DNA of 64,000 bases from a phage. Of this stretch, positions 10,683 to 58,400 are shown one piece after another (within the stretch, counting starts at the first letter, position 1; each line of letters opens with the position of its first letter). Both the position numbers and the translations under genes were made by a program. Location: sequence record PZ445487.1; one strand, 5' to 3'. The notes under the pieces are model-generated. The model was not told where the DNA came from, searched no databases, and saw only the letters and a list, made by a program, of their open reading frames with translations.

Positions 10683-10685
10683 AAA

Positions 10686-32934: not shown

Positions 32935-32973
32935 AGATACCCCACACTGGTCGTATGGGGTATTTAGGATGGA

Positions 32974-38884: not shown

Positions 38885-38992
38885 GGCACTCAGTGTACGA
38901 CAGGCTCCGATATTTCATAGGGCATTACTGCCTCGGATTTAAGTTGCCTTTCTCCTGAAACTCCATACAGTCTCGCGTCTGACGCGGAATGC
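38885..38992. repeat. long-range inverted repeat (atctttgagggca / tgccctcaaagat) enclosing about 82 nt
   Basis: Arms at 38885..38897 and 38980..38992. Confidence 0.55.
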
Positions 38993-39003
38993 CCTCAAAG
39001 ATA

Positions 39004-39031
39004 TGGAGCCGTTTTAGGGAGTCGAACCCAA
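39004..39031 (-). other. orphan tRNA 3'-module with encoded CCA (T-arm TTGGG-TTCGACT-CCCTA, acceptor AAACGGC)
   Basis: No canonical D/anticodon arms within 120 nt upstream; a possible 5' partner GCCGTTA lies at 39121..39127. Confidence 0.3.
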
Positions 39032-39130
39032 ATGCTTGGCCAGCGCTGACCTTACATCCCATCTGACTTAGGCAACCCACCTCTGCTTACTCAGGAGCTT
39101 ATCCCCTTTGGACAGTCAGATATAACGGCT

Positions 39131-39158
39131 TTGGGATTGGAGGAAGGACTCGAACCTT
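39131..39158 (-). other. orphan tRNA 3'-module with encoded CCA (T-arm GAAGG-TTCGAGT-CCTTC, acceptor CTCCAAT)
   Basis: Upstream 41 nt is too short for D plus anticodon arms and no 5-7-5 hairpin is found. Confidence 0.3.
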
Positions 39159-39231
39159 CTCATGTACGCTCCTGATTTCTCAGAAGTAGTCTGCTCCCAT
39201 CGACCTATTAAGTACACGCTCCGCTCATTGT

Positions 39232-39262
39232 CGGCGGGAGATTATTAATCACACCCTCCCGC
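39232..39262. repeat. hairpin ggcgggag-(15 nt)-ctcccgcc
   Basis: 8-bp GC-rich stem seen directly. Confidence 0.5.
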
Positions 39263-39545
39263 CTATTTTAGTGCGCCGAATTTTGTTATGAGGAATCGGA
39301 AGACCTCACTGGTGTATGGCTATTAAGCTACTGCCAGGAACGTGTTATCATTAGCGATTATTTTTGTGGTCAGTTTCTAAAAACCCGCAAAGTCACGCAC
39401 AACGAAAACGAAAACCTGTTTGAGTCCTAAACCTACCTGTCTTGGTCTCACATCGCTATGAGTGGCCAGGACTCAAACAGCTTGCCGTTCAGTGAGTTAA
39501 CTATACTTTGTAACCCGTTATTGATAAAACCTTTTATTTTTGTTG

Positions 39546-39569
39546 ACGAGGGTGTGGAATCGAACCACA
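39546..39569 (-). other. orphan tRNA 3'-module without CCA (T-arm TGTGG-TTCGATT-CCACA)
   Basis: Possible 5' acceptor partner about 100 nt upstream (39644..39650). Confidence 0.25.
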
Positions 39570-40273
39570 CTTCTGAGCGCCACCCCGTGTCACCAATGCA
39601 CCACCTCACCATCGATTTGCCGGAACTTACGCATCCGGCCTCGTCCTGTCGGTGTTCTTCTGAATCCGGGAAGATCAGCAGGAACTATGAATCAAGTTAA
39701 TTCAACCAACAGGAATCCTCTTGTTGCCCTTTGACGCAACATTATGAACCCTCTATGAAGACTCATAATGTTGTCGGCGTGATGGAGATTAGCGCCCCCG
39801 ACCTCCCCTTATATGTTGGTGTCGACTTGCCAACGGGGTGCTCTCGTTTTTCTGAGCTAATCACGCTACAACAGGGAGTTTCGTTCTCCGACGGTCAAGT
39901 GCGTCCACTGACACCAGCGAGGTGGCTATTACGCCTCTATTCACACAAGCCCCTGAGACTAGGGGTTAACTGGTTTTGGGCTGCAAACCCGACTCCCACT
40001 GTGTTATTTCCCTCATGTTTAATACTTTACCGCAGCCCAGCTAATTTGAAAAGTCCTCTCCCCTTTGAGCTACACTGCCCACAGCAGTGCGGACGAACCT
40101 TCACTCAAAACCGGATGCGCCGAAGTGGGCAACTGTTTACCGGACTGATCAGGTAGACCCAGGAGAGAGCAGGTAATCCCGATCAGGAGGATGAGGAGTA
40201 ACATCATGTAAAACATAGTGTTCCCTCCCTTCCATGCAACTAACTTTACTACAATTATTTATTGAATAAAGCG

Positions 40274-41151: not shown

Positions 41152-41162
41152 CTAAATATCTT
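41152..41162 (+). promoter_or_regulatory. late-promoter-like motif CTAAATAtCtt upstream of gp6
   Basis: T4-type late promoters are TATAAATA; CTAAATA-plus-pyrimidine-run recurs upstream of late genes here. Confidence 0.45.
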
Positions 41163-42980: not shown

Positions 42981-43818
42981 TAATGGACACAACGGGGTTA
43001 AGTATGAAACTCCGTTGTTCTACCAGAATGATTTCCCTCTGTTCATAGAATTTATGGACACGTTCTTCAATTGGTTGTATAGACAGCAGGGGTTTACTCA
43101 AGAAGAGATCTTGGCATATCTGGCAGATACGTCTAGTTGGATGAATCCTGAGAGTGAAGATTCTCCAGTTAAGCAGCTGATTGATTTAAAGGCTGACAAG
43201 ACCCCAGGCTCAGAGGCCAAGGATTATTTGTCAGATAAATTTTTGGTCAGAACATTTGAGAACATGATGGCTCTGGATGCCGAAGAACTTTTAGATGCCG
43301 ACGGAAGGCCGCTACTGTCAATAGAAGATAAGAACAAACAGATAGATGACTGGTATAATGATTTTGGTTTCCAACGAACTGTTGATAAATCATTTCAGGA
43401 ATTTGGTCATTTTATCCCAGTTGGTTCGGATTCTTTATTGACGGCCACGGGCGATACGTTCTCTGTTTATATCGAAGGAACGAAACGAAGAACTCTGGAT
43501 CATCCGCGTTGGCTGAAATTGTTGAAACACATCTATAAAATACGTGGAACAAAGAAAGCGATTGAATTGTTCTTTTGGATATATTTCGGTTGTCCAGTCA
43601 GCGTCTATTTTACGAAAGAAGACATAGGCGGTCTGGACGGAAATTTTGAATGTGACGGCACGACAGGGATGCGTGATGATTACTATTATGATGAATACAC
43701 TTATGTTATAGGAGTCCCAGGCGACGTATCTGATTTTGAAGGTGTGTTTGAGCGCGTCTTCCGTCAGCATTTTCATCCTGCTGGATTTACTGTATTCCTA
43801 GAAAGCACAAGGAGCTAA
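42964..43818 (+). CDS. baseplate-associated protein (284 aa)
   Basis: Start ATG 42964, overlapping the gp6 stop; position within the baseplate/fibre operon. Confidence 0.5.
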   Translation: MSKDLNNGHNGVKYETPLFYQNDFPLFIEFMDTFFNWLYRQQGFTQEEILAYLADTSSWMNPESEDSPVKQLIDLKADKTPGSEAKDYLSDKFLVRTFENMMALDAEELLDADGRPLLSIEDKNKQIDDWYNDFGFQRTVDKSFQEFGHFIPVGSDSLLTATGDTFSVYIEGTKRRTLDHPRWLKLLKHIYKIRGTKKAIELFFWIYFGCPVSVYFTKEDIGGLDGNFECDGTTGMRDDYYYDEYTYVIGVPGDVSDFEGVFERVFRQHFHPAGFTVFLESTRS

Positions 43819-43820
43819 AA

Positions 43821-45011
43821 ATGGCCGATTTCCTGAGTCAATATACAGGTCAGCAGATAGATCAGATATTGGGTTCTGTTGACGACAAAGTAAGTAAAAA
43901 CGACGTCATTGATGATTTTGAAGTCAGCGACTCATTGTTTCCACCGTCTGCTCGCCTGACATACGAGTTGAAAAGATCTGTTGACACAATCAATGATACT
44001 CTGGCCAACAAAGTTATTCGGACAGATAGTGGTGAACAAACAATCAATGGCAAAAAGACTTTCAATGCGTTGTTGGTGACCAATGGGGGCATACAAGTCC
44101 CTGCTGGAAAATCCGTTTCAATCACAGATGAACCAACGAACTCGACAGATGGTGTTAACCTGAGCATGTTGAGAAAGCATGGCGTCAGTGAAGACACAAC
44201 CCCGCCCGGTTCTGGTTTAGCTGGGGAGTTGTTGACATCCGGATATTACAAATTCAATTTGGATTTCACCAGATTGTCTGCGTATACCGGACCAACGTTG
44301 CCGACTTCAGTTCCAGTACAAACAGATTCTGGAGCGCATTATTGGACAATGACTGCATTTTTTGATGCGTTGTTTGCAGATAACCGATTTAATGGATATG
44401 TGACAACGACAGCGTATGATGCAGATATGCTGAGTTTAGAGTCCCAGATTAATAACATCAACACGTCGTTGAACGGGAAAGTCAACACCTCGACTTACAA
44501 CACTAAGATGGCGTCATTGGATTTGAGTATCTCCAATATCAATACGTCTCTGGGTAATAAAGTCGAGGTTAGCACGTACAACACGAAGATGACATCTCTG
44601 GATAACAGCATCAGTTCTCTTTCCAGTGATAAAGTTAGTGTATCAACGTATAATGCCAAGATGACCTCTATCGACAATAGTTTGGGGAACGCCGTTTATC
44701 GTACCAAAACGAATTTGTCGTCATACACGGTTTCGGCTTCTGGAACGACGGCTCTTCCAGATTTTGATTTGGTGAACCTTTGTCAAATACTGGTAACTGC
44801 GCAATGGGGGACAGGTAACGTTGTTGACACATATCGAGTAACCATAACTCGTGACGGAACGATCAAAACAGAGTTGTTGGTTCAGAAAAGTACGAGCGGT
44901 ACAGTGACGTTCACAGGGGCTGTGGTGGGTGGTAAATTGAGAATTTCCGTTGTTAATGCAAACACGACAACTGCTTGTTCTGTCGACTATTCTATTGCAG
45001 CTTCTTTCTAA
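43821..45011 (+). CDS. tail fibre protein with tandem 21-aa repeats
   Basis: AAGGAG RBS; repeats NINTSLNGKVNTSTYNTKMASLD / NINTSLGNKVEVSTYNTKMTSLD / KVSVSTYNAKMTSID. Confidence 0.7.
   Translation: MADFLSQYTGQQIDQILGSVDDKVSKNDVIDDFEVSDSLFPPSARLTYELKRSVDTINDTLANKVIRTDSGEQTINGKKTFNALLVTNGGIQVPAGKSVSITDEPTNSTDGVNLSMLRKHGVSEDTTPPGSGLAGELLTSGYYKFNLDFTRLSAYTGPTLPTSVPVQTDSGAHYWTMTAFFDALFADNRFNGYVTTTAYDADMLSLESQINNINTSLNGKVNTSTYNTKMASLDLSISNINTSLGNKVEVSTYNTKMTSLDNSISSLSSDKVSVSTYNAKMTSIDNSLGNAVYRTKTNLSSYTVSASGTTALPDFDLVNLCQILVTAQWGTGNVVDTYRVTITRDGTIKTELLVQKSTSGTVTFTGAVVGGKLRISVVNANTTTACSVDYSIAASF
44451..44690 (+). repeat. three tandem copies of an approximately 63-nt (21-codon) repeat inside the tail fibre gene
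   Basis: Seen directly in nucleotide and protein sequence. Confidence 0.6.
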
Positions 45012-45013
45012 AA

Positions 45014-45053
45014 CTAAATACCCCTAGATGACATGAATACATTTAGGGGTATT
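45014..45053 (+). promoter_or_regulatory. late promoter motif CTAAATACCCC overlapping a 9-bp hairpin (atacccctA...Taggggtat) upstream of TSP4
   Basis: Same architecture upstream of TSP3 and TSP2. Confidence 0.5.
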
Positions 45054-45057
45054 ACAA

Positions 45058-48000
45058 ATGGCCAACAAACCAACACAGCCTCTTTTCCCTTTGGGTTTAG
45101 AAACTTCTGAGTCTTCGAACATAAAAGGCTTCAACAACTCCGGCACTATTGAGCATTCCCCTGGTGCCGTAATGACATTTCCTGAAGATACTGAAGTTAC
45201 AGGTCTTCCATCTTCTGTGCGTTACAATCCTGATAGTGATGAATTTGAAGGTTATTACGAAAACGGTGGTTGGTTGTCTTTGGGGGGTGGTGGAATACGC
45301 TGGGAAACGCTCCCTCACGCTCCCTCTAGCAATTTGTTAGAAGGTCGTGGATATCTCATTAATAATACCACAGGGACATCTACAGTGGTTCTCCCTTCCC
45401 CTACGCGTATTGGGGATTCCGTTACTATTTGTGATGCTTATGGGAAATTTGCCACTTACCCATTGACCGTGTCTCCTTCTGGAAATAATTTGTATGGCTC
45501 CACTGAAGACATGGCTATAACAACTGATAACGTATCAGCAACGTTCACTTGGTCTGGACCTGAACAAGGTTGGGTTATTACATCCGGCGTCGGTCTTGGT
45601 CAAGGCCGTGTCTACAGTCGTGAAATCTTTACACAAATTTTGGCGTCTGAAACAAGTGCTGTCACTCTCAATACTCCACCAACAATTGTGGACGTGTATG
45701 CTGACGGAAAACGTCTTGCGGAATCCAAATATTCATTAGATGGGAATGTAATCACTTTCAGTCCTTCTTTGCCAGCCAGCACTGAATTGCAGGTAATAGA
45801 ATATACTCCTATTCAATTGGGTAATGGCGGTGGTTCTGGTTCTTCTACGATTACCTGGGTCTATAATGGGGGTTCAGCGATTGGCGGTGAAACCGAAATC
45901 ACGTTAGACATCGTTGTTGATGATGTTCCGGCCATTGATATAAACGGAAGTCGCCAGTATAAAAATCTGGGGTTCACATTCGATCCATTAACCAGTAAAA
46001 TCACTCTTGCGCAAGAACTGGATGCAGAGGATGAAGTTGTTGTAATTATCAATGGAACGCCAAACATCTATAATCAAATTGATTATACTTTGCGGGAAGT
46101 GGCTCGCGTAACCAATGTTAAAGATACAGAGGTCATTTATTTTAGTGTTGGTGCTGTGTTAAGCGGGTATAAAGTTATCTATGATAAAGTAACACAGAGA
46201 TCATATTTTATTCCAGAGCTACCGACTGGAACCACGGCAGTCAGCCTTAGTTCTTCGGCTATACTTGTGCATTCTGCTGGTAGTGTTGATCTGGGCGCAT
46301 TAGCTGTATCTCGTGAAGAATATGTTACATTGTCTGGGACATTTGATTCTGGTGCTGTCATCAATACTAAAAATGAATTACTCACCCATACTGATGGAAA
46401 GTATCGTTGGGATGGTACACTTCCTAAAACTGTAGCTGCTGGCTCAACTCCAGCAACAACTGGAGGTGTTGGTTCGGGAGCGTGGTTGAGTGTTGGTGAT
46501 GCATCTCTGAAAAGTAATTTAAATAAACCAAATGGCTTATCTTATATAGGAACCGTATCATCAGTTTCTGAATTATCATCAATAGCAGGATTAATTGGTG
46601 ATTCTATAATTCTTGATTCGTATGTTGACGGGTTTAATCTTGGTGGCGGTGTTATGGTGGCTGTTAACTCAGATACTGTGGTGGATAATATCGTTACTTT
46701 CCAAGGCAATGGTGTCGTTTGGAAAAGGAAATTATTCAACGGTGTGGCGGATGTGTACGAAGCTGGTTATACTGGAACCGGAGATTTGGCTATATTCATC
46801 AATAAAATAAATGCCGTCGGATTTGACTGTATAGTCCCTGTTTCTGGTGAGATAACAACACCGATTATTTTTGATATAGCAAAAGGTGCACTTATTGGAA
46901 AAAATAAATGTACTCTAATAGAATCTGCATCTGCAACGGGCGACTACTATCTAACCATCGTTAATACAGACACGGATTACACCAATAGAGATGTAATTAA
47001 CGCAACTGCGTTAATGACTGGAGTGTCATTTGTTGGAAAAGGGACCAGGAAATTGGCGATCGGTGGTTCTACCAGTGGAGAAGTCTCAGAGTTAAGAATA
47101 TCTAATTGCGGGTTTATCTCAACTGCTGGAATTGAGTTTCTTGATAATGCATATCGTATTCTTTTTGATAAATGTGCGTTGTCCAGAAGTTTTACAAATT
47201 CTGTTATTTTCAATTCACCAGCGAATTCCGGTGAAGTTATAAAATTTAATCATTGTTGGATGGTTGACAACGGTGGACCTTTTACATTCAAGAATGGACA
47301 ATTTATATTCGATAGCTGCTCTCTACCAGCAGGTAAAAAATCAGGATATTTTGACCCTGTTGTTGCGTTATCAGATAACGCAACAACAGTTTTCACAAAT
47401 GGCAACATTGAGTACCAACCTGGTCAGAGTTTCGTTGGGTTTACTGTAGATGGTAGTTCACGATTAAGCATCAGTGATTCGACAATACTGTTGCCGAATG
47501 ATTATTCTACAGTACCTATTGTAAACAACGGGGATGGGGTTGTTAGTCTAAATAATTGCTCGTTACCTCTCTATGGAAGCACAACGATTGCTACTGGGTT
47601 TGCCACACGGCAGTTGATAGGTGGGTTGAGTAAAAAAATAATGTCCAGAGGTTGCTATCCACGAGCAGGGTTTATAACAAGTAACTGGAATTTAGGGTGC
47701 ATTGTAAGCCCTTATATTAATAGTGTTAGTAATGGCTCAGGGCAGTTTGAAAATATATCTAACTGGACACTCTCACAAACTGGAACAGACGTTGTCACTG
47801 TTACTACAGGAAACGATGTTCCTAACGATTTAATGTTTTCAACTTCTTTTGTCTTATCCGTACCAACAGTGGGTGCAGCGGCTAATTTCACCCAGACAAT
47901 CATTGACTGTGAGCCTGGGCGTTATTTTCAACTTGGGTTTTGGGCTAAAAATACAACAACCACCCTGGCATCAATTAGATTCCTGGACCAGCAAGGAAAT

Positions 48001-48168
48001 GCTGTCGCGGATTCCATAGGATATAACATCCCAGTAGGAAACACGTTCAACTTTTATGCTTTGGTGGATTGCGTTCCGCCAGGAGCTTACAAAGCTGAAA
48101 TTAATTTCAATGTTTCCTCTATTGTTGGTGGTATCGCAATACACAATGTCATTTACGGATTGATATGA
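45058..48168 (+). CDS. tailspike protein TSP4-like (1036 aa)
   Basis: Size equals the 1036 aa I recall for CBA120 TSP4; long N-terminal extension plus shared module (VKDTEVIYF...AVSREEYVTL...GKYRWDG) and beta-helix-like C-terminus. Confidence 0.8.
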   Translation: MANKPTQPLFPLGLETSESSNIKGFNNSGTIEHSPGAVMTFPEDTEVTGLPSSVRYNPDSDEFEGYYENGGWLSLGGGGIRWETLPHAPSSNLLEGRGYLINNTTGTSTVVLPSPTRIGDSVTICDAYGKFATYPLTVSPSGNNLYGSTEDMAITTDNVSATFTWSGPEQGWVITSGVGLGQGRVYSREIFTQILASETSAVTLNTPPTIVDVYADGKRLAESKYSLDGNVITFSPSLPASTELQVIEYTPIQLGNGGGSGSSTITWVYNGGSAIGGETEITLDIVVDDVPAIDINGSRQYKNLGFTFDPLTSKITLAQELDAEDEVVVIINGTPNIYNQIDYTLREVARVTNVKDTEVIYFSVGAVLSGYKVIYDKVTQRSYFIPELPTGTTAVSLSSSAILVHSAGSVDLGALAVSREEYVTLSGTFDSGAVINTKNELLTHTDGKYRWDGTLPKTVAAGSTPATTGGVGSGAWLSVGDASLKSNLNKPNGLSYIGTVSSVSELSSIAGLIGDSIILDSYVDGFNLGGGVMVAVNSDTVVDNIVTFQGNGVVWKRKLFNGVADVYEAGYTGTGDLAIFINKINAVGFDCIVPVSGEITTPIIFDIAKGALIGKNKCTLIESASATGDYYLTIVNTDTDYTNRDVINATALMTGVSFVGKGTRKLAIGGSTSGEVSELRISNCGFISTAGIEFLDNAYRILFDKCALSRSFTNSVIFNSPANSGEVIKFNHCWMVDNGGPFTFKNGQFIFDSCSLPAGKKSGYFDPVVALSDNATTVFTNGNIEYQPGQSFVGFTVDGSSRLSISDSTILLPNDYSTVPIVNNGDGVVSLNNCSLPLYGSTTIATGFATRQLIGGLSKKIMSRGCYPRAGFITSNWNLGCIVSPYINSVSNGSGQFENISNWTLSQTGTDVVTVTTGNDVPNDLMFSTSFVLSVPTVGAAANFTQTIIDCEPGRYFQLGFWAKNTTTTLASIRFLDQQGNAVADSIGYNIPVGNTFNFYALVDCVPPGAYKAEINFNVSSIVGGIAIHNVIYGLI

Positions 48169-48179
48169 TTAACAACCAT

Positions 48180-48207
48180 CCCCCGCTTTTGGCGGGGGTC
48201 TTATTAT
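48180..48207 (+). terminator. rho-independent terminator (cccccgc-tttt-gcggggg plus T-rich)
   Basis: Directly after the TSP4 stop. Confidence 0.6.
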
Positions 48208-48264
48208 AAATTTTATTGGTTCTCAGACTAAATACCCCATATTGGTCATCCTTTATGGGGTATT
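48208..48264 (+). promoter_or_regulatory. 57-nt conserved element: late promoter CTAAATACCCC (48228..48238) plus hairpin ataccccat/atggggtat
   Basis: Nearly identical to 50202..50258. Confidence 0.5.
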
Positions 48265-48267
48265 AAC

Positions 48268-50151
48268 ATGATTTCTCAATTCAATCAACCACGCGGCTCC
48301 ACTTCCATAGAAGTTAACAAACAATCTATCGCTCGAAATTTCGGTGTCAAAGAAGACGAAGTCATTTATTTCACTGCTGGTATTGATCTCAGTGGATTTA
48401 AAGTAATTTATGATGAGTCTACCCAACGGGCTTATTCTCTCCCTTTCGGTATTGTTTCAGGGACAACTGCAATTAGTCTGGATGAAAGAGCTATCCTCAC
48501 TCATTCCGCTGGCTCTGTTGACCTTGGGGAATTAGCAGTAAGCCGCGAAGAATATGTGACTTTACCTGGTTCTTTTAATTTCGGCCATACCATTAATGTG
48601 AAAAATGAACTTCTTGTTCACGATGATAAAAAATATCGATGGGATGGTTCTTTGCCAAAGGTAGTTGCCGCTGGTTCTACTCCAGATAGTTCAGGTGGTG
48701 TTGGTTTAGGTGCATGGTTGAGTGTTGGTGACGCGGCATTGAGGGCTGAGTTAAATACAAAGGTCTCAGATGGAACCTTCCCTGCAACTATAAAATATAA
48801 ATATGGGTTGCCATCTGTTATTGATGGTGCTATATACAGAACTGTACAAGATAAGCTGGATGATTTTGTTTTTCTGGAAGACTTTGGAGGCAAGGATGAT
48901 GCTGGTAGTACCGACAATAGCATAGCGTTTCGGAAGGCTTTTGCTTCTGGTGCAAGAAAAATTAGGCTGCGTGGTTCTGGTGTTTATGGTATGGCGACCA
49001 GAGATATTGAGCTTCCAGCAAAATATGAAATTATCGGCAATGCAAAAAATCCAGAAATCAAATATTTAGGCACAGATACATCATTCACTATGTTCACCCT
49101 CACTGGTAGTGGGCCTGCTTCTAACCAGTGGAAACAGGGTGGCATGTTCCGTGATTTAATCATTTCTTCTGATGTGAAGATCAACTGGATGCTAGGCCGA
49201 CATGTACAGAACTTGGATTATGATCGTGTATTCTTCTACAACTCAGCTACTGTGCTGAACAACTATCACTATGTGAACTTTACTCGATGCGAGCGTTGGG
49301 GTAGTGCCTTCATTGGTCGTGCTGATTTGAACACAATACAGTTCATTAGTGAGTCACCTAAGTTCCACTTGTGCTTTAGCTCTGGTTCACCAATTGATGT
49401 GTGGGACACAGCAGACTTGGCAATCACCAAGTGTACTATGTTCGCAGGTGATTATGCAGTTCGTACCCGTGTAACACAGAAACAGGTAACAGCACCAGAC
49501 TTGTTCGCAGGATACCCTGTGCTCATCACGTGTAGTGTGTTCGATGCGGTACGTGGCCATGCTTGGGATTTGGAGGGTTCGGTCTACTCTACCATCACTG
49601 GCAACCTTGTGAGTGCTGGACGTGATACAAACAGTCACGGTGCATACATCAAGGGCGGGCGTAGTTTGTCACTTACTGGCAATGTGTTCACTTACTGTGG
49701 TAACTATGGATTGGTCCTCGAAGATGTACAGCAGTCTGGTTTCGTTGGTAATGTCTTCAACGGTAATAAGACAGGCGGTCTAGGAACCCTCGCCTGCAAA
49801 GACCTCAGCATTGTTGGTGGTAGTATGGGTACAACCTATGTACGTGGTGGGTACTACACTCAGCCTGTAGGTTATTCTGATATATCAAGTAACTCAACTG
49901 GCATTTTACTTAGTGGTGTTGCTTTCGATGAAGCCTTAACTACTAAGGTCTACTTGGACACTAGCATCACTACAAGGAACAAAGTTATTAACTGCTCAGG
50001 TGTTCCTGATACAATAGCTCGTGGTAGTACAGCCAATAGACCTGCCAATCCACAGGCAAGTTATCAATATTATGATACTACTTTAGGCATTCCTATCTGG
50101 TGGAACTCAGTTAGCGGCACATGGAAAAACGCGGCTGGAGCTGATGTTTGA
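48268..50151 (+). CDS. tailspike protein TSP3-like (627 aa)
   Basis: Size equals the 627 aa I recall for CBA120 TSP3; shared N-terminal module; beta-helix-like C-terminus. Confidence 0.8.
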   Translation: MISQFNQPRGSTSIEVNKQSIARNFGVKEDEVIYFTAGIDLSGFKVIYDESTQRAYSLPFGIVSGTTAISLDERAILTHSAGSVDLGELAVSREEYVTLPGSFNFGHTINVKNELLVHDDKKYRWDGSLPKVVAAGSTPDSSGGVGLGAWLSVGDAALRAELNTKVSDGTFPATIKYKYGLPSVIDGAIYRTVQDKLDDFVFLEDFGGKDDAGSTDNSIAFRKAFASGARKIRLRGSGVYGMATRDIELPAKYEIIGNAKNPEIKYLGTDTSFTMFTLTGSGPASNQWKQGGMFRDLIISSDVKINWMLGRHVQNLDYDRVFFYNSATVLNNYHYVNFTRCERWGSAFIGRADLNTIQFISESPKFHLCFSSGSPIDVWDTADLAITKCTMFAGDYAVRTRVTQKQVTAPDLFAGYPVLITCSVFDAVRGHAWDLEGSVYSTITGNLVSAGRDTNSHGAYIKGGRSLSLTGNVFTYCGNYGLVLEDVQQSGFVGNVFNGNKTGGLGTLACKDLSIVGGSMGTTYVRGGYYTQPVGYSDISSNSTGILLSGVAFDEALTTKVYLDTSITTRNKVINCSGVPDTIARGSTANRPANPQASYQYYDTTLGIPIWWNSVSGTWKNAAGADV

Positions 50152-50162
50152 TTGTGATTAAT

Positions 50163-50190
50163 AACTCCGCTTCAGCGGGGTTATTATTAT
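50163..50190 (+). terminator. terminator-like hairpin (ctccgc-ttca-gcgggg) plus TTATTATTAT
   Basis: Directly after the TSP3 stop. Confidence 0.5.
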
Positions 50191-50201
50191 GCCTTTGTTC
50201 A

Positions 50202-50258
50202 TAAATTTTATTAGTTCAGACTAAATACCCCATATTGGCAAATCCTTTATGGGGTATT
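50202..50258 (+). promoter_or_regulatory. 57-nt conserved element: late promoter CTAAATACCCC (50221..50231) plus hairpin
   Basis: Paralogue of 48208..48264. Confidence 0.5.
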
Positions 50259-50263
50259 TTCAA

Positions 50264-53029
50264 ATGACTAGAAATGTAGAAGAATTATTCGGCGGTGTAA
50301 TCACAGCTCCCCACCAGATTCCTTTCACGTATAAATCAAATGTCGGTGGAGAAACTTTCCTTTCCTTGCCGTTCTATCCTGTCACTGGCGTAGTCACAAT
50401 CAACGGTGGTATGCAAGTTCCGTTAGACAACTTTGAAATCGAAGGAAATACATTGAATCTCGGACGCGCATTGTCCAAAGGCGATGTTGTGTATTGCTTA
50501 TTCGATAAAATTCTTTCGCCAGAAGATACAGCCAAAGGTATCCGCATATACAAATTTCAGGCCGTAGGAGGTGAAACCGAGTTCACTCCTGATTTCACAT
50601 CTTATGGAGTCCAATCTCTTTATATCGGTGGCGAGTACAAAACACCCGAAATTGAATATTCCTATGACAGCACGACAGGAAAAGTATCTTTGCAAACTGC
50701 ACTGTCTGCAGGCGTTTGGGTAGTCGCTGAAATGTCTGTTAAACAACCGAATATCAGTCCGGCGTTTGACCGAAGTATTCAAGAAATCGCCCGTTCTGCT
50801 AATGTGAAAGACTCTGAAGTCATCGTTAGTACGGACACCATATCTTTGTTGGATGGGAAGAAAGTTGTTTATGATATAGCGACGCAAACCAGTTATGGTT
50901 TACCAACCATTCCTGATGGTTCTGTCATTTCTTCTGTATCTGCTGGGAAATTGAATTACAACCCAGGTGATGTGCAGGTTGATTTGTTGCCTTTAGAAGA
51001 TTCATTTATTAACGTGATAAACACTCTGGGGCGCAATGATGGTGCCAAGTATATTGGAGAATGCCATTCTGTTGCTGATCTCAGGAATACTGAACCCACT
51101 ATGGATGGACAACGCATTATTCTTAAGCAACACACTGCGGGTACTCTTCTTGGTGGAGGGGTATTCCGTGCGTTAATTGATGGTACAGGAAAGACTGATA
51201 ATAACGGTACTGTGATCAAAACTGTTGGCGGCGCAGCATGGTTACGTGTTAATGCTGATAGAGTTAACCCATTCATGTTTGGTGCTTTGGGTGGTTCTAA
51301 TGATGATACTATTCCAGTACAATCTTGTGTGGATAGTGGTAAGGCCACACAATTAACTGATGCACATTACGTTAGCAATATCCAGTTAAAATATAATACG
51401 TCGTCTATTTATGGGTCTGGATTACATTACTCAAGGTTGCATCAGTTGCCTTCTGCTACTGGGAATTGTATTACCATAAAAGATACATGCTCCCTTATTG
51501 TATTAGACGCCTTTGGGGTATATGGCACAGGTGCACAACAAGGCACGTCATTTACTGCGGGTACAACAGGTATCTATGTAGAAACTCCTTCAGGTCTCTC
51601 AGCCGATTATCCGTTCCACACTACCGCAGACCCAAGACGCGACTTGTGTATTTCTAAAGTCCATATAGCAGGTTTTGATGAATATGGGTTAAATATTGAT
51701 AGTGGTAACTTTAGTGTTACTACAGATTCTCTTTTAGTCAACCACATCAATCAGGTGGGTGTCCGTTGTGCTACTACTGATTGGACTTGGACAAATATCC
51801 AGGTTAATACCTGCGGTAAACAATGTCTAGTTCTTGATGGTTGTGGTAATGGTCGTATTATTGGCGGTAAATTCATTTGGGCTAACTGGCAACCTTATGG
51901 TACAGTAGGACAGTTTCCAGGCATTACTATTAATAACAGCCAGAATATGGTTATTAATGGTATTGAGGTACAAGATTGTGGCGGGAATGGTATTGAGATT
52001 AGCGAGTCATATTCAATTTCCATGAACGGATTGAACACCAATCGTAACGGCATCAATGCTAACAACACTTTCTACAACATCGTATTTAACAAAAGTGATG
52101 CAGTTATCAACGGATTCGTAGGACTCAATTATGCCGCGAATAGTGGTTCAGGTGCTAACTCTAGTGCAGGCAATTTTCAGTTCCTGTCTAATGATTGTAG
52201 TGTCACCATTAATGGTGTGGTTGAGACTGGTTATATGGGCATTAACTTTATTGGTGATAACAATATTATCAACCCCACCAATTCCGACCTGAGCATTAAC
52301 GGATTGGTTAATTATTCCAAGACTGGTTTGCAAACCATGAACGAGACCCCTACATTTGATGGTGTTAGCACTACACCTGTTTATGTAAGTGTCCCATCTT
52401 CTGTGGGGCAAGTAAATGGTCTGAGACTATCACAAGCCAACAAAGATAAATTACTGTACTCAAGAACAGCAGGTCCAGAAGGTATTACCATGGCTGCTGT
52501 TATAGTACCTACCATATCTGGAGCTGAAGTATTTAACTTCATGGCCATTGGTTCAGGGTTTAGTGATACATCCAACAGTCTTCATCTTCAATTAGTTATA
52601 GACGCTTCTGGAAAACAAACAATTGCTTTGCTATTGGGGGGCGATGGTACAACCCAAATTTTATCTGGGGATTTACCTAACGACCTTAAACTACAAAGTG
52701 GTGTGCCATATCATATAGCTATTGGTGCTAAACCTGGATATTTCTGGTGGAGTATTCTTAATATTCAGACGGGTAAGAGAATCAGACGGTCATTCCGAGG
52801 CGCTTATTTAGCCGTACCATTTAATTCTATATTCGGATTAACTTCCTCATTAACATTCTTCTCGGATAGCAATGCTGGTGGGGATGCTTGTTCTGGGGTG
52901 GGCGCTAAAGTGTATGTTGGTATGTTCTCTTCTGAGAACGATTATGTAGCTTCACGATACTACAACCTGATTAATCCTGTAGACCCTACTAAGTTAATTA
53001 GTTACCGTATATTGGATTCTTCTATTTAA
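50264..53029 (+). CDS. tailspike protein TSP2-like (921 aa)
   Basis: Start at the second ATG (50264, MTRNVEELFGG) gives 921 aa, matching the size I recall for CBA120 TSP2; ORF-track start 50249 lies inside the promoter hairpin. Confidence 0.8.
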   Translation: MTRNVEELFGGVITAPHQIPFTYKSNVGGETFLSLPFYPVTGVVTINGGMQVPLDNFEIEGNTLNLGRALSKGDVVYCLFDKILSPEDTAKGIRIYKFQAVGGETEFTPDFTSYGVQSLYIGGEYKTPEIEYSYDSTTGKVSLQTALSAGVWVVAEMSVKQPNISPAFDRSIQEIARSANVKDSEVIVSTDTISLLDGKKVVYDIATQTSYGLPTIPDGSVISSVSAGKLNYNPGDVQVDLLPLEDSFINVINTLGRNDGAKYIGECHSVADLRNTEPTMDGQRIILKQHTAGTLLGGGVFRALIDGTGKTDNNGTVIKTVGGAAWLRVNADRVNPFMFGALGGSNDDTIPVQSCVDSGKATQLTDAHYVSNIQLKYNTSSIYGSGLHYSRLHQLPSATGNCITIKDTCSLIVLDAFGVYGTGAQQGTSFTAGTTGIYVETPSGLSADYPFHTTADPRRDLCISKVHIAGFDEYGLNIDSGNFSVTTDSLLVNHINQVGVRCATTDWTWTNIQVNTCGKQCLVLDGCGNGRIIGGKFIWANWQPYGTVGQFPGITINNSQNMVINGIEVQDCGGNGIEISESYSISMNGLNTNRNGINANNTFYNIVFNKSDAVINGFVGLNYAANSGSGANSSAGNFQFLSNDCSVTINGVVETGYMGINFIGDNNIINPTNSDLSINGLVNYSKTGLQTMNETPTFDGVSTTPVYVSVPSSVGQVNGLRLSQANKDKLLYSRTAGPEGITMAAVIVPTISGAEVFNFMAIGSGFSDTSNSLHLQLVIDASGKQTIALLLGGDGTTQILSGDLPNDLKLQSGVPYHIAIGAKPGYFWWSILNIQTGKRIRRSFRGAYLAVPFNSIFGLTSSLTFFSDSNAGGDACSGVGAKVYVGMFSSENDYVASRYYNLINPVDPTKLISYRILDSSI

Positions 53030-53036
53030 AAAATAT

Positions 53037-53062
53037 ACCCCTCTTCGGAGGGGTCTTTACTA
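53037..53062 (+). terminator. rho-independent terminator (acccctc-ttcg-gaggggt plus T-rich)
   Basis: Directly after the TSP2 stop. Confidence 0.55.
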
Positions 53063-53081
53063 GAAAAACAATGAGGTACTT

Positions 53082-55394
53082 ATGAACGAAATGTTTAGTC
53101 AAGGTGGTAAAGGTTCAACTGGAATCTTAACCAATAAACAAGCAGTAGCCAGACACTTTGGAGTTAAACAATCTGAGGTTGTTTATTTCTCAGTTGGTGT
53201 AGATTTAGGTGGGTATAAAGTTATCTATGACAAGGAAACGCAAAGAGCTTATTCCTTACCTGTTGGTATTGCTTCTGGTACTACTGCCGTCAGTCTTAGT
53301 ACTGCTGCTGTACTTGTACATTCAGCAGGTTCTGTAGACTTAGGTTCATTAGCTGTATCTAGGGAAGAATATGTAACTTTACCTGGTTCATTTGATTCTG
53401 GTTCTACGCTTAATGTTAAAAATGAATTACTTACTTATACGGATGGTAAGTATCGCTGGGATGGGATACTACCTAAAACTGTAGCTCCTGGTTCAACTCC
53501 TGCATCAACTGGCGGCGTTGGTTTAGGCGCGTGGATTAGTGTTGGTGATGCTTCTTTGAGAACACAACTGGCAAACGGCGATGGCTCGTTGATTGGAATT
53601 CATCCACAGGGAACGCTAAATAATGTATTAACTGTACGCACACCTGAACAGTACAATGCGGTAGGCGACGGAATAGCTGACGACACTTCAAAATTAAAAG
53701 AAATGCTTTCAGATATAAACAACGTTCCTGAAACACTTCCTGATGCTGCGGCTGTAAACTCATACATGGAGCAAGTAGCAGTAAAAATTGACCTGACCAA
53801 GTTATACCGTTTCACGGAGACGCTATACATACCACCAGGTGTTTCAATTGAAATACCAACATCAAACTTTTTTACTCGTGAGTGTAAGCAAGGATTGTTT
53901 TATGACCCAGTAGATAAGAATACAGCAGCAATTAGCTTAATGGTGTACCGTAAACAGCCAGATGGTTCATACAAACTCAATAAAGATGTAGATTATTATC
54001 CTACTGGGTTAGATATTGATAATGGGGATGCTATAACATGTGCCAGAAAAATTGATATTAATAACCTTAACCTGATTACAGCACCGGGTGTAAAGGTCGG
54101 TGTTAAATGGATAGGTGGGGCAGGTTGCACTACAAAAGGGTTATCCATTGGGGAGAATACAGGGAGCGATATTACAACAGCAAGACTGCCAAGAGTAGGA
54201 TTATTGCAGTCAGCATCATGGGGTTCTATTCATGAAAATCTACGTATCCTGTATAAAACTCAGGGCGCAGTGTTCATTGACTCTAATGGCGGGGCTGCTG
54301 TAAACAATGCTTACATTTCTCGCCTTGGTAATACTAATGGTGAGTTGGAACAAGCGGTGTATAAACCAGCAGGGTTTACTGAGGTAGGTGATGTTGCCGT
54401 CACTCAGTTTGCAGGTTCAGAGGTTAAGTTTAATAGCCCAATCATCGAACAAGCATCCTTCGACTTTGTTCACGCTGGTCGGGATACTGATTCCTATGGT
54501 TTATTTATGGTTGATAAACCCCATATTGAGTCATCTGGCGGGAAGAAAAAACATAGCTTCTATCTTATCAATACCAGTTCGAATGTTACGTTGTCAGGAG
54601 TAGGTCTTTCAGGACAAGACCCTGATTTGGATAGCATGTACTTCCTTAAAAACTGTCCAGAAACTGCCAGAAATGTTGTTAGAGGACAAATGCCAATAAG
54701 TGGCGTAAAACTCGTTAGGGGTACTGGTAATTACCCCACATTGGTACTCGACTGTACAAATATGGGAAGTCAATTCCAATTTGGAGAAGTTGGTGACATT
54801 TTCTATATCAAAGATGTTGTTGGTGTAAAAGCAGATACTCTTTATATAGACCCAGTGAATGGTAATAATTATAACTGGGGGACCAATGGGACTAAACCTA
54901 TACGGGAATTAACTAATATTGCAAAGATATGCCAGCTTTTTAGATGTAAAAGTGTTTATCTTAATGCTGGAGAATCAGTTATTACATCTAACACAGAATT
55001 GCCTATGGTGGTGTTTGAAGGTCCTGGAAGCTTAAAAGCAAATTCTGGTAGTAGTTTCCTTATTAAAGCAGGTGGCACATTATCACTAATTGGCCTTTCT
55101 GGAATATCTACAGATGGTGGTCATATGTTCAGGGTGTCCACAGTAGAGAAGGTAAATATACACACAAACTGTTCAGTTAATGCTGGTGCGGCTTATGTTG
55201 TTCTAAGTGAGGTTCAAGGTAATATTGAATACAGGCAATTATTTTATTCAGTAAACTGTTCTAAGTATATTGGTGCAACTGCTGGACAAACTATCGCTGG
55301 TATTATGGTTAAGACTGCAACAAGACCGACAGGAATCGATGCTGCTCCAGTTGATGGTAATGTTTCTCTAACCTATAAAATTATAGAATCATAA
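53082..55394 (+). CDS. tailspike protein TSP1-like (770 aa)
   Basis: Size equals the 770 aa I recall for CBA120 TSP1; shared N-terminal module (VKQSEVVYF...AVSREEYVTL...GKYRWDG). Confidence 0.8.
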   Translation: MNEMFSQGGKGSTGILTNKQAVARHFGVKQSEVVYFSVGVDLGGYKVIYDKETQRAYSLPVGIASGTTAVSLSTAAVLVHSAGSVDLGSLAVSREEYVTLPGSFDSGSTLNVKNELLTYTDGKYRWDGILPKTVAPGSTPASTGGVGLGAWISVGDASLRTQLANGDGSLIGIHPQGTLNNVLTVRTPEQYNAVGDGIADDTSKLKEMLSDINNVPETLPDAAAVNSYMEQVAVKIDLTKLYRFTETLYIPPGVSIEIPTSNFFTRECKQGLFYDPVDKNTAAISLMVYRKQPDGSYKLNKDVDYYPTGLDIDNGDAITCARKIDINNLNLITAPGVKVGVKWIGGAGCTTKGLSIGENTGSDITTARLPRVGLLQSASWGSIHENLRILYKTQGAVFIDSNGGAAVNNAYISRLGNTNGELEQAVYKPAGFTEVGDVAVTQFAGSEVKFNSPIIEQASFDFVHAGRDTDSYGLFMVDKPHIESSGGKKKHSFYLINTSSNVTLSGVGLSGQDPDLDSMYFLKNCPETARNVVRGQMPISGVKLVRGTGNYPTLVLDCTNMGSQFQFGEVGDIFYIKDVVGVKADTLYIDPVNGNNYNWGTNGTKPIRELTNIAKICQLFRCKSVYLNAGESVITSNTELPMVVFEGPGSLKANSGSSFLIKAGGTLSLIGLSGISTDGGHMFRVSTVEKVNIHTNCSVNAGAAYVVLSEVQGNIEYRQLFYSVNCSKYIGATAGQTIAGIMVKTATRPTGIDAAPVDGNVSLTYKIIES

Positions 55395-55395
55395 T

Positions 55396-55425
55396 AAAAA
55401 CCCCGCTTCGGCGGGGTTTTTATTT
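55396..55425 (+). terminator. strong rho-independent terminator (aaaaaccccgc-ttcg-gcggggttttt)
   Basis: Perfect GC stem plus U-tract after the TSP1 stop. Confidence 0.7.
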
Positions 55426-55448
55426 CTATCCTGTTTGTTGGCTGTATA

Positions 55449-55459
55449 CTAAATATCTC
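55449..55459 (+). promoter_or_regulatory. late-promoter-like motif CTAAATAtCtc upstream of the 1612-aa gene
   Basis: Motif family as above. Confidence 0.4.
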
Positions 55460-55488
55460 TATAAAATGGCACTCTATGGAGCATCAAA

Positions 55489-58400
55489 ATGCAATCTACA
55501 AATTTAAACCGTCGCCCGTATTGGGATGACTGGAATCCTGGGAAACGTTTTTCACGGATTCTTTTTCGTCCGATGCCTATCAAGGTTCAGACTCGCGAAC
55601 TGAACCAGATGCAGACTATTCTTCAGGATCAAATTGAAAAACTGGGCAACCATTTGTTCAAAGATGGTTCTATGGTTATCCCTGGCGGTTTGACGATCAC
55701 TAACGCCGCAGTCTCTTTGAAATTCACTTTGGCGGGTGGTACTGAATTCACCGATCTGGAAGGTATTTCTGAACTCTACGTTTTGGGGAAAGACAATAAC
55801 GCCAAAGCGCGTGTGTTGTCTCTTGAACGTGATCTGTCTGCTCCTGATACGATGTTAGCCATCCTTGAGATGACTGAAGCGGGTAATGCTGACGGATTCC
55901 ATGTTAACGATAATCTGTATTTCCAGACTTACGACGTGAATGATAATTTCATTCGTATTGGTTATGGTATCGCAGCTGCGGTGACTGGTTCTATCGTTGC
56001 TCGTATGACGAAAGGCGTTTACTTCATTCGTGGGATGTTCCTAGACGTTGATGACGCGACTCTTATCGTTGATAAAACTTCGAACACGTCTTCCCACCGC
56101 GTCGGATTTAAAGTCACTGAAACCATCGTGACTGAATCTGAAGACGAATCCCTTTATTCAAATGCTCAGGGAACGATTAACTCCAAAGCCCCAGGCGCTC
56201 ATCGTCTTCGAATAGATCTGGTCTTATCCCGATTTGACTATGACGCGGTGGTTGAAGACTTTGTTGAATTGGCCAAAGTCCGTGATGGTAAAATCCAGTC
56301 TATGGTGACTCAGTCTACCTATAATATTCTGGAAGACACGTTAGCCCAACGGACTTATGAAACCAATGGCGATTACAACGTTTCAACCCATCAGATCGAC
56401 ATCCGCGAACACCTGAAAGTCAATAACAATGGTGGTGTATTCAATGCTGCTGATGGCGGTGACGAAAGTAAATTCGTGTCTGTAATGAAACCAGGTATTT
56501 CCTATGTTCGTGGTCGCCGTATCGAAAACGTCGGGGAAGAGTTGGTGATCGTTGATAAGGCGCGGGATACCGATGTCCTGAACAACACTCCTGTTGCGGT
56601 GGCCACAGGCAATTATCTGGTCACTAAGAATTCTAAAGGTGTGCCAGTGATATCCCGCACCGTCCGATACAAATTACTGAATGCTTCAGGCGTTACCCAG
56701 GCTACAGCACTTTGTATATCAGCTGAACGTAATTCAACAGAATTTCGTCTGTATATGCGCGACCTGGTCGTTACTGGCGATGCATCCACTATCACCAAAG
56801 TGTCTTACGAAGAAAGCGGTATCACCATGTTCTCTGCTGAACTGGAATCCAATCAGTTTAACCAGAGTTCTATGATAGATCTGATCTTCTCTCTTCCGGT
56901 ATTCGGTGTCAAGACTTTAGCACCAACTGGCTCCGTGGATATCAACTACACTGTTCTCAGAACGTATAAAGTGACGTTGGACAACAGCGGCGCGGGTTCT
57001 ATTTCTGCTCCATTGGGATATAGTTTTTCCCCAGAATTTTCGTTATACTCTGCAGCGAAATCAGATGGTTCGGAAGCGCAGTTCGATATCTCTGGTTCTT
57101 TGTCTTTGACTGGTTCTCCGGTCGGTTCGGCGCTGCAGATTTCTCTGGGCAGTGGTAATGCTAACCAGTCAATCAATTTGCTGGCGCTGATGATTCGTAC
57201 CACGGCCACAATCAAAACGAAGACCATCACTGAAACAACTGAAACAGTGACGTTCACCTCGCAGACTAGCCGCCCTTTGGCGAATCACGATGGTTGGAAA
57301 TTGGTGTCGGTCAAAAACGATACTGGCGCAGACGTGACCTCCAGCTTCGTCCTAGATGGCGGACAGCGTGATGCAGGGTATTACAAGTCTAACTTGTTAT
57401 CCAGCGCTGGAGCAATCTCAGGGACGTATACAGTGGTGTATCAATACTTCGCCCACAGTTCCGGTGATTTCTTCTCTGCTGATTCGTATACTTCGATGGA
57501 TTATAAAGATATCCCGAATTATACATCTTCTACATCAGGCGCGGTGTACGGCCTGGCAGATAGTTTGGATTTCCGTCCGAAAATCACCAACGGAACTTCT
57601 GACACAGATATGGTTCGTCCAAACACTGCAGTTATTCTGGACACAGAATATTATCTGCCGCGTATTGACGCGATTTATCTGGCAGACAACGGCGTGTTCG
57701 GAGTGGCTCGTGGCATCAGTTCGAACAATCTGGCTTCTCCAGCAATCCCAGCGAACGCCATGCGTTTGTATGAATTGTTGATCCCGCCGTATACACCGAA
57801 TATTGATGATATTCAAATTCGAACTATTGATAATCGTCGTTATACGATGCGCGATATTGGTAAACTGGAAACCCGTATTTCCAATGTTGAATACTATACC
57901 TCTCTATCACAGCTGGAATCTTCAGCGATGACACAGCAAGTGTTCGACCCCATCACGGGCAATCCCCGTTTCAAAAATGGTATTGCAGCTGATCCGTTCA
58001 AAGACTTCCGGTTGATTGATGACTTGTCTGAAGATTGGATGGGTTCTATCGATACCGAAAACGGACGTCTACGCCCGTTTGTACAACAGAACGTTGTTGA
58101 CATGACTCCTGTTGGCTGGAACAAAGTGATGGATGGGATGGTGGTTTGTAATTACACGCCTGAAATCTCAGTGAACCAAGAATATGCGACGACGACGATC
58201 AACGTTAACCCGTATGCAGTATTCAATTGGGAAGGTTTCTTGAAGATTAACCCGACCACAGACTACTGGTTCGAAAACTATTATGTTGCGCCGCGTATTA
58301 TCAATGAAACGATCAACACCCGTGGTACTGTACAAGAAGGTTCAGTGTACGGAACATGGCGTACTGTTTCTGTTTCTGATCGTGTTTGGGAACCGCATGG

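Follow-up and report, generated by a model that had tools for sequence, protein, structure and literature searches.

The subject of this analysis is a cluster of four consecutive genes at positions 45058-55394 of a 64,000-nt stretch of phage DNA (sequence record PZ445487.1), which we call the window. The region is the tailspike cluster orf213-orf212-orf211-orf210 of the Kuttervirus CBA120, encoding the tailspike proteins TSP4, TSP3, TSP2 and TSP1, a result that is already known at the protein level. Taken jointly, our observations are very probably explained by a CBA120 tailspike cluster that is transcribed from three late promoters, has Shine-Dalgarno sequences (SDs) masked by hairpins, and exchanges the C-terminal bodies of its proteins. 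We infer three promoter-defined transcription units for the four genes, namely TSP4, TSP3 and TSP2-TSP1, followed by a unit that begins with orf209. A preliminary description of the window had proposed that each gene is its own transcription unit; with three units for four genes and predicted read-through into TSP4, that proposal appears only partly right.

Identity of the cluster

The list of open reading frames (ORFs) gave four consecutive + strand ORFs in 45058-55394, in exact agreement with the coordinates of the preliminary description. In a megablast search the region was 100% identical over 10337 nt to JN593240.1 / NC_016570.1 (positions 118908-129244, minus strand), and this match to Escherichia phage CBA120 spans orf213, orf212, orf211 and orf210, which are TSP4, TSP3, TSP2 and TSP1. 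The products of 1036, 627, 921 and 770 aa had therefore been assigned correctly from their sizes. The whole window is the reverse complement of circularised JN593240, with window positions 1-16997 corresponding to record positions 16997-1 and window positions 16998-64000 to record positions 157304-110302. Since record positions 1 and 157304 are adjacent at 16997/16998 of the window, the window comes from a circularised or permuted copy of the genome. The genes and the domains of their products are as follows.

45058-48168, + strand: TSP4 (orf213), 1036 aa
45058-46062: TSP4 residues 1-335, baseplate anchor and XD1-XD3
TSP4 residues 344-1036: head and beta-helix body
46303-46500: Tail_spike_N (PF18668) of TSP4, aa 416-481, within the D1-D2 head
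48268-50151, + strand: TSP3 (orf212), 627 aa; Tail_spike_N at aa 90-155, Beta_helix at aa 376-506
50264-53029, + strand: TSP2 (orf211), 921 aa from the annotated ATG; N-terminal XD2-XD3 domains
53082-55394, + strand: TSP1 (orf210), 770 aa; Tail_spike_N at aa 91-156

All four products matched their own PDB entries end to end with E = 0, so that the resemblance to CBA120 orf210-213 noted earlier was borne out. The entries were 5w6h (aa 344-1036) and 7rej/7rfo/7rfv (aa 1-338) for TSP4, 6nw9 and 5w6f for TSP3, 6w4q (full length, aa 1-921) and 5w6p/5w6s for TSP2, and 4oj5 and four more for TSP1; TSP4 and TSP2 also cross-matched the 9d80/9d83 fibres. The N-termini of TSP4 (anchor, XD1-3) and TSP2 (XD2-3) carry gp10-like XD domains, as assigned in PMC8825819. 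According to Pfam, TSP1, TSP3 and TSP4 share the D1-D2 head (Tail_spike_N, PF18668), which is followed by a beta-helix body, and the bodies of the TSPs are identical to the solved structures. By synteny and 100% identity, the cluster adjoins the baseplate genes gp6-orf216-orf215 on one side and orf209 (VrlC/DUF4815) on the other.

The crystal structures, the O-antigen specificities and the assembly model have all been published (Plattner 2019; Chen 2014; Greenfield 2019, 2020; Chao 2022), and the main claim about the proteins is therefore not new. The four trimers form one branched adhesin on the baseplate, attached by the TSP4 N-terminus (anchor and gp10-like XD1-XD3), with contacts between TSP4 XD2 and TSP2, TSP4 XD3 and TSP1, and TSP2 XD3 and TSP3 (PMC8825819). 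The C-terminal beta-helix bodies each act on a different O-antigen. Among E. coli O-antigens, TSP2 cleaves O157, TSP3 cleaves O77 and TSP4 cleaves O78, and TSP1 has been linked to infection of Salmonella Minnesota (PMC8825819). The preliminary view of a branched multi-receptor adhesin thus coincides with the published assembly.

Two kinds of side observation concern these proteins. In about 289 records of Vibrio phages with genomes of ~114 kb, a 'long tail fiber distal subunit' is 29% identical to TSP4 residues 39-248, a match that covers the region of the anchor, XD1 and XD2 and suggests that gp10-like docking domains may have been reused in a quite different phage group. Start codons are also annotated inconsistently. 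The longest TSP2 ORF is 50249-53029 (926 aa), and the ATG at 50264, five codons downstream, gives 921 aa; within the genus, the upstream start is annotated in kage (at 7305 of its locus) and EP75 (at 8846 of its locus), giving 926 aa, and CBA120, S8, BSP101 and S117 have 921 aa. In phage S8 (12052-12228 of its locus), the orf209 homologue is annotated from 84 nt downstream of a conserved ATG that is kept, together with promoter and SD, in the other five phages, which is probably a mis-annotation of the start codon in S8.

The putative late promoter element

The motif CTAAATACCCC has exact copies in the window at 45014, 48228 and 50221 on the + strand and at 32957 on the - strand. When one mismatch or none was allowed, there were 4 matches compared to 0.65 expected, and none of 100 shuffles gave 4. 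Three of the copies lie 40-44 nt upstream of the start codons of TSP4, TSP3 and TSP2. These and related elements, with the genes next to them, are listed below.

45014-45024, + strand: CTAAATACCCC, TSP4 copy; putative late -10 (CTAAATA) and start of the hairpin 5' arm
48228-48238, + strand: CTAAATACCCC, TSP3 copy, upstream of TSP3
50221-50231, + strand: CTAAATACCCC, TSP2 copy, upstream of TSP2
41152-41158, + strand: CTAAATA at gp6, 47 nt upstream of gp6 (orf217, 41199-42980)
43821-45011, + strand: orf215, conserved baseplate-associated protein; stop codon 2 nt before the TSP4 promoter motif
55449-55459, + strand: CTAAATATCTC, plain late-promoter-like element without a hairpin, upstream of orf209
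55489-60327, + strand: orf209, DUF4815/VrlC-like baseplate protein; GGAG SD

In order to see the first seven bases in their genomic context, it is useful to consider them apart from the rest of the motif. The CTAAATA 7-mer occurs at 25 sites in the CBA120 genome, about 17 of which precede a start annotated on the same strand by 30-49 nt; most of these starts belong to genes for structural proteins (gp48, gp22, orf192, gp18, gp14, gp6, orf209 and TSP2-4). A 20-nt interval for each of ~205 genes amounts to ~1.3% of positions on both strands, so that less than one site would be found there by chance, and we estimate from these ~205 genes that CTAAATA is enriched ~50-fold at 30-49 nt upstream of starts genome-wide. 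The canonical TATAAATA is present at orf081 and gp26, and CATAAATA at gp5. Homologues of gp55, gp33 and gp45 are annotated in JN593240 as orf120, orf084 and orf163, respectively, which we know from the annotation only. An element resembling TATAAATA, at a short set distance from the starts of late genes and enriched over chance, is therefore present in the cluster, TSP1 excepted. By its position and enrichment, the assignment of CTAAATA as a late -10 element is well supported. It would be the family counterpart of the T4 element TATAAATA, and would be read by the homologues of gp55, gp33 and gp45.

The consensus may be somewhat wider than the 7-mer. The genes of the major capsid protein gp23 (JN593240 101120), the portal protein gp20 (104994) and the tail tube protein gp19 (105595) have no exact CTAAATA; they have similarly spaced variants with one mismatch, CTAAGTA at gp23 and CTAATTA at gp20 and gp19. 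In view of these variants, CTAAnTA may be the consensus of the late -10, or else TAAATA with flanks that can vary.

TSP1 has no such element. Neither CTAAATA nor TAAATA is found within the 52-nt TSP2-TSP1 spacer, the motif is absent upstream of 53082, and the spacer lacks both CTAAATA and TAAATA in all six Kuttervirus loci (CBA120, S8, BSP101, kage, S117 and EP75). The only signals in the spacer are a 7-bp UUCG hairpin and a GAGG SD, in CBA120 as in the other five phages. We rejected a degenerate TSP1 promoter, 'AAAATATACCCC': only its CCCC part resembles the motif and belongs to a small hairpin, and no relative has the TAAATA core. Sigma-70 promoters were rejected as an explanation for lack of enrichment, with 49 sites in the cluster compared to 41.7 +/- 6.1 expected and none specific to the intergenic spacers.

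The 11-mer CTAAATAcCcc is said to have been noted first by Adriaenssens et al. in Arch Virol in 2012. It has been given as a 'unique regulatory motif' of ViI-like phages, one of two (PMC7283392). As a side observation, an exact match alone is not diagnostic of the Ackermannviridae cassette described below, since the string CTAAATACCCC(C/T)GAGAAATC(G/A)GGGGTATTTTTATTA recurs in IMG/VR loci L038, L039, L059, L077, L109, L114 and L115 (contigs of ~10-83 kb), where it looks like an ordinary terminator and no ORF starts after it.

Leader hairpins and a possible translational gate

An inverted repeat, AAATACCCC...GGGGTATTT, begins with the bases after CTAAATA at each of the four exact copies within the window, and likewise at orf087, the RuvC-like gene. 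The only purine-rich SD candidate, a GGGG located 5-9 nt before the ATG, is in the 3' arm, and this arm ends 2-7 nt upstream of the ATG. The leaders of the three tailspike genes that have the motif fold as follows.

45017-45053, + strand: TSP4 leader hairpin, 14-bp stem AAAUACCCCUAGAUG / CAUUUAGGGGUAUU, GGGG SD in the 3' arm, ending 4 nt before the ATG; -20.4 kcal/mol, z -6.4
48231-48264, + strand: TSP3 leader hairpin, 11-bp outer stem sequestering the GGGG SD; -19.6 kcal/mol, z -3.74
50223-50259, + strand: TSP2 leader hairpin, sequestering the GGGG SD; -19.3 kcal/mol, z -4.0

The upstream TSP2 ATG at 50249, from which the ORF of 926 aa runs, is located within the 3' arm of the TSP2 leader hairpin. 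The plain CTAAATA promoters of gp22, gp18, orf209 and gp6 have no inverted repeat and are accompanied by ordinary SDs. We considered whether the leader hairpins are terminators of the upstream gene and rejected this for the three leaders, which have no U-tract behind them.

For the calculation of SD accessibility, the transcription start (+1) was placed 5-6 nt after CTAAATA according to the geometry of T4 late promoters. CTAAATA overlaps the outer 5' arm, and the +1 so assumed falls after CCCC. The probability that the SD window is unpaired in the five hairpin leaders was 0.00-0.10 in read-through RNA and 0.26-0.54 in RNA from the predicted +1, and at ten plain promoters it was 0.12-0.53 in read-through RNA.

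The TSP4 leader hairpin is kept in five genera (Kuttervirus, Agtrevirus, Limestonevirus, Taipeivirus and Miltonvirus), where the loops differ and changes in the stem compensate each other, as in TAGATG/CATTTA versus TAATG/CATTA. When IMG/VR was scanned for the outer arms, at least 120 stretches were obtained, among them 35 distinct gene-proximal copies, located 0-8 nt before an ORF that begins with ATG. In these 35 copies, which have 20 different inner-arm sequences and loops of 3-16 nt, the stem extends inward by a mean of 3.54 bp compared to 0.59 bp in shuffled copies (maximum 1.17 in 2000). This supports a hairpin that is selected at the level of the nucleic acid.

In the mechanism that we propose, the bases after CTAAATA (ACCCC...) would be the 5' arm that pairs, in a hairpin, with a 3' arm containing the GGGG SD. 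RNAs from the gene's own promoter, starting ~5-6 nt after CTAAATA, would lack the 5' arm and would be translatable, and read-through RNAs from upstream would have their ribosome site masked. The 11-mer may then be a composite cassette that joins a late -10 of the gp55 type to an SD-masking 5' arm and acts as a portable insulator, tying translation strictly to the gene's own promoter. We regard this as quite possible, if just short of probable. If it is true, the genes that have the cassette, which are TSP4 and TSP2 (anchor and hub), TSP3, orf229 and the RuvC-like resolvase, would be insulated from read-through of neighbouring late operons, and this insulation would fix the stoichiometry of the branched adhesin.

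Several considerations reduce our confidence in such a gate. For the position of +1, and hence for the gating model, we rely on an assumption taken from T4. In the IMG/VR copies the search pattern itself set the outer arms, and many copies are homologous to one another; the matches that are not gene-proximal also pair above chance (mean 2.14), as some of these are terminators. At TSP4 the gate would act on transcripts from the gp6 block, a block that appears to be late itself, and the rationale there would thus differ from the early-versus-late gating of T4 gene e. With masked TSP4 transcripts coming from a late block, the gate would be an insulator and not a timer.

A different reading, which we find rather unlikely, is that the ACCCC...GGGGUAU hairpins are real and are not gates, serving instead as stabilisers of the mRNA 5' end (with +1 upstream of the arm), as processing sites, or as palindromic binding sites of a late regulator. 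Conservation of the stems is strong and extends to the outer AAAUA/UAUUU pairs, which overlap the putative -10, and the timing rationale is weakened by upstream transcripts at TSP4 that are probably late themselves. However, the sole purine-rich SD candidate, 2-7 nt before the ATG, is in every case covered by the 3' arm. The loop length (3-16 nt) and the sequence of the inner stem change freely from copy to copy with pairing kept, which argues against a protein site with fixed spacing and in favour of a hairpin of nucleic acid. For RNase III, stems of 11-14 bp are also short. Furthermore, CTAAATA is found at a promoter-like distance even where there is no hairpin, so that +1 is expected downstream of it.

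Two genes outside the cluster have the same arrangement. The promoter and SD-masking hairpin also precede orf229 (149 aa, hypothetical) at window positions 32934-32967 on the - strand, and the RuvC-like resolvase gene orf087 is preceded by the cassette as CTAAATACCCA, with a 13-bp stem (JN593240 44214-44257, - strand). In T4 the functional analogue of the RuvC-like resolvase is gene 49 (endonuclease VII), which is regulated by a similar device.

Terminators and module exchange

A G+C-rich stem-loop followed by a U-tract was found past the stop codons of TSP4, TSP3 and TSP1 on the + strand, and not past that of TSP2. The elements at the gene ends are the following.

48180-48207, + strand: terminator-like hairpin after TSP4, CCCCCGCUUUUGGCGGGGG with tail UCUUAUUAU, 12 nt past the stop codon
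50160-50190, + strand: terminator-like hairpin after TSP3, AAUAACUCCGC-UUCA-GCGGGGUUAUU, then AUUAU
53037-53054, + strand: short TSP2-TSP1 hairpin, ACCCCUC-UUCG-GAGGGGU, 7-bp stem
53073-53076, + strand: TSP1 SD GAGG, unmasked, 5 nt before the ATG
55395-55430, + strand: strong canonical terminator after TSP1, UAAAAACCCCGC-UUCG-GCGGGGUUUUUA with a U-rich tail

The folds gave z -3.35 for the TSP4 terminator hairpin (48180-48198), -17.1 kcal/mol and z -4.76 for that of TSP3 (~50160-50185), and -19.2 kcal/mol and z -4.72 for that of TSP1 (55395-55422). Over the whole region, the terminator scan found 18 candidates compared to 13.4 expected, which is no overall enrichment. The TSP2-TSP1 hairpin has a U-poor + strand tail, CUUUACU (4 U), and its spacer does not fold exceptionally well (z -1.38); its possible roles are those of a leaky terminator, an attenuator or a stabiliser of RNA ends. 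As a side observation, it scores better as a terminator on the - strand (tail AUAUUUUUUA), on which there is no gene nearby. There is no terminator between orf215 and TSP4, as the motif and the leader hairpin take up the whole 46-nt spacer. A scan of the whole window at the Rfam gathering thresholds gave tRNAs only and nothing in the tsp leaders.

We compared 43500-57000 by blastn with the corresponding loci of five Kuttervirus phages (S8, BSP101, kage, S117 and EP75). Homology was interrupted as follows.

TSP4: homology stops at 46502-46535 (aa 481-492) and resumes at 48181-48206
TSP3: homology stops at ~48744 (~aa 159) and resumes at 50160-50167
TSP1: homology stops at 53555-53560 (~aa 159) and resumes at 55379-55380

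In these five relatives, the 3' junction of the swapped segments is at a stop codon, a terminator or a conserved intergenic block, and the 5' junction falls within the gene, where the conserved N-terminal head domains end. Because homology is lost within the genes and regained at the stop codon or terminator, the segment that is swapped consists of the C-terminal receptor-binding body and its terminator. Its 5' limit is the conserved D1-D2 head, and its 3' limit is formed by the conserved intergenic block of promoter and hairpin and by the N-terminus of the next gene. The head-domain DNA of TSP1, TSP3 and TSP4 is paralogous (66-77% identity), as are the TSP4-TSP3 and TSP3-TSP2 intergenic blocks (77-85% identity). 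Evolutionary exchange would thus swap the C-terminal body, beginning where the conserved head domains end and reaching to the stop codon or terminator, and the conserved intergenic block can, in principle, act as homology arm on the 3' side. The terminators vary with the C-terminal module that precedes them and appear to travel with it. The G+C-rich hairpin between TSP4 and TSP3 is present in CBA120, S8, BSP101, kage and S117, and EP75 (6543-6621 of its locus) lacks it.

In the published model the conserved 5' parts of the tsp genes are the recombination sites (PMC8432352, PMC11414711). Judged from the alignments, our breakpoints are in agreement with it; the intergenic signals are not discussed in either paper. 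An arrangement of the genes that eases module exchange had also been suggested for the window beforehand, which holds at the 3' junctions, located at a stop codon, terminator or intergenic block, and does not hold at the intragenic 5' junctions. What is exchanged is the receptor-binding body and not, as had been supposed, a cassette from promoter to terminator.

Probable transcription units and alternative explanations

With these elements, the cluster would be expressed late from three promoters and not four. TSP1 probably rides on the TSP2 transcript, and would be translated from RNA that passes the weak hairpin. The gp6 element heads the gp6-orf216-orf215 block, which runs into the TSP4 leader without a terminator, so TSP4 would also receive read-through from this block. 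Terminator hairpins after TSP4, TSP3 and TSP1 would close the transcripts. The earlier picture of one transcription unit per gene therefore stands for the motif before TSP4, TSP3 and TSP2 and fails at TSP1, where there is none; of the proposed bracket of promoter and own strong terminator, TSP3 has the whole, TSP4 and TSP2 each have half, and TSP1 has a terminator and no motif. We rejected the idea that co-transcription of TSP2 and TSP1 mirrors direct binding of their products, since TSP1 binds TSP4 XD3 and not TSP2.

On the other side of the balance, Kutter et al. 2011 described the late promoter of the ViI group as not yet identified, and the literature searched contains no study of transcription start sites, 3' ends, RNA-seq or expression for Ackermannviridae; the 2024 review of the family contains neither the word 'promoter' nor 'transcription'. 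The TSP2 hairpin might also terminate efficiently in vivo, and TSP1 would then need a promoter that we did not recognise.

The view that there are four autonomous cassettes, each with its own late promoter and efficient terminator, and each expressed and exchanged independently, is in our opinion improbable. It would account for the three exact copies of the motif, for the hairpins past every stop codon, and for the paralogy of the TSP4-TSP3 and TSP3-TSP2 intergenic blocks. However, the TSP2-TSP1 spacer has no CTAAATA or TAAATA in six Kuttervirus phages and the tail of its hairpin is U-poor, no terminator precedes TSP4, and EP75 has none between TSP4 and TSP3. Several tailspike genes of Taipeivirus, Miltonvirus, Limestonevirus and Agtrevirus are 10-14 nt apart without a promoter or terminator signal, and some tailspike genes in these four genera have a plain CTAAATA and a GGAG-type SD. 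The exchange breakpoints, moreover, are intragenic. Still more improbable is one long late operon, gp6-orf216-orf215-TSP4-TSP3-TSP2-TSP1, transcribed from the gp6 promoter with the hairpins as attenuators or stabilisers and CTAAATACCCC as a non-promoter, which would agree with the common orientation of all the genes, the lack of a terminator before TSP4 and the unenriched terminator scan, but not with the excess of CTAAATA upstream of starts, with the near-canonical stems and U-rich tails of the hairpins past TSP4 and TSP3, or with the SDs of TSP4, TSP3 and TSP2, all of which would be masked in such a transcript.

Gene-free stretch upstream of the cluster

About 5 kb upstream of the cluster, and adjoining the tRNA cluster, window positions 37900-40070 (JN593240 134232-136402) form a stretch of ~2.1 kb that has no annotated gene or convincing ORF and is conserved across Ackermannviridae. 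It contains four long imperfect inverted repeats (38125-38218, 38591-38726, 38873-39005 and 39407-39489), which on the tRNA strand fold with -40 to -58 kcal/mol and z -4.7 to -7.2. Within the stretch Rfam gave sub-threshold generic hairpin hits only, and ARAGORN found nothing apart from the four tRNAs already known. Small stable RNAs or degenerate tRNA-like elements may be encoded there. A piece of ~100-170 nt at ~39241-39417 is 73-80% identical to unannotated DNA of unrelated phages, including FelixO1-like phages, Salmonella phage 7-11, Escherichia phage swi2 and Klebsiella siphoviruses. This piece has no Rfam or tRNA assignment and could be a shared tRNA-derived or mobile small element.

Significance

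The cluster is a model for branched multi-receptor adhesins and for the engineering of phage host range. As the biology of the adhesin is already established, we add nothing at the protein level. What goes beyond the literature searched is the split of the 11-mer into a promoter and an SD-masking arm, and the layout of three units for four genes, both of which we put forward from sequence comparison. For swaps or additions of tsp genes in Kuttervirus, as in the S117 and CBA120 chimeras, it matters that TSP1 has no promoter motif of its own, that the conserved promoter-hairpin cassette in the leaders of TSP4, TSP3 and TSP2 may tie translation to local initiation, and that terminators appear to travel with the C-terminal modules. 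If the gating is true, it would for the first time give a functional meaning to a motif that is listed for the family and not explained.

Comparison with known systems

Compared to TSP1-TSP4 of CBA120, the sequence, gene order and sizes are identical and there is no difference at the protein level; the promoters, terminators and leaders of the cluster are not described in the published work on it that we examined. The docking principle has parallels in other phages. In the periphery of the T4 baseplate (gp10-gp11-gp12) and in G7C (gp66/gp63.1), gp10-like XD platforms dock trimeric fibres or spikes, as TSP4 and TSP2 do. In contrast to the four depolymerase tailspikes of CBA120, T4 docks a wedge protein and short tail fibres, and G7C has two spikes.

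The motif has the same sequence as CTAAATAcCcc of the ViI-like phages (Viunalikevirus, now Ackermannviridae). Whereas the literature examined treats it as one motif of 11 nt, here it is resolved into a general CTAAATA, with ~17 gene-proximal sites, and a subset of five sites in which CCCC(A/T) begins the SD-masking hairpin.

In T4, late promoters are located in the 5' strand of a hairpin that occludes the ribosome-binding site in e, soc, I-TevI, segB and other genes; long early transcripts are masked, and late transcripts start inside the stem and are translated (PMC3014915, PMC2988022). I-TevII, I-TevIII and mobE of Aeh1 also belong to this class. At the level of sequence features, the promoter class and the hairpin gate proposed for CBA120 are resemblances to these T4 systems: in both, a late -10, putative in CBA120, lies in or near the 5' strand, and the 3' strand of the stem holds the SD. 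If the gate is real, a device of the T4 e/soc/I-TevI type would have been reused in a different phage family. The CBA120 cassette differs from the T4 class in its -10 core, which is (A)CTAAATA compared to TATAAATA, and in being a near-invariant unit that is used again at TSP4, TSP3, TSP2, orf229 and the RuvC-like orf087. It also differs in that the genes it would gate in the cluster encode receptor-binding proteins and have upstream neighbours that are also late.

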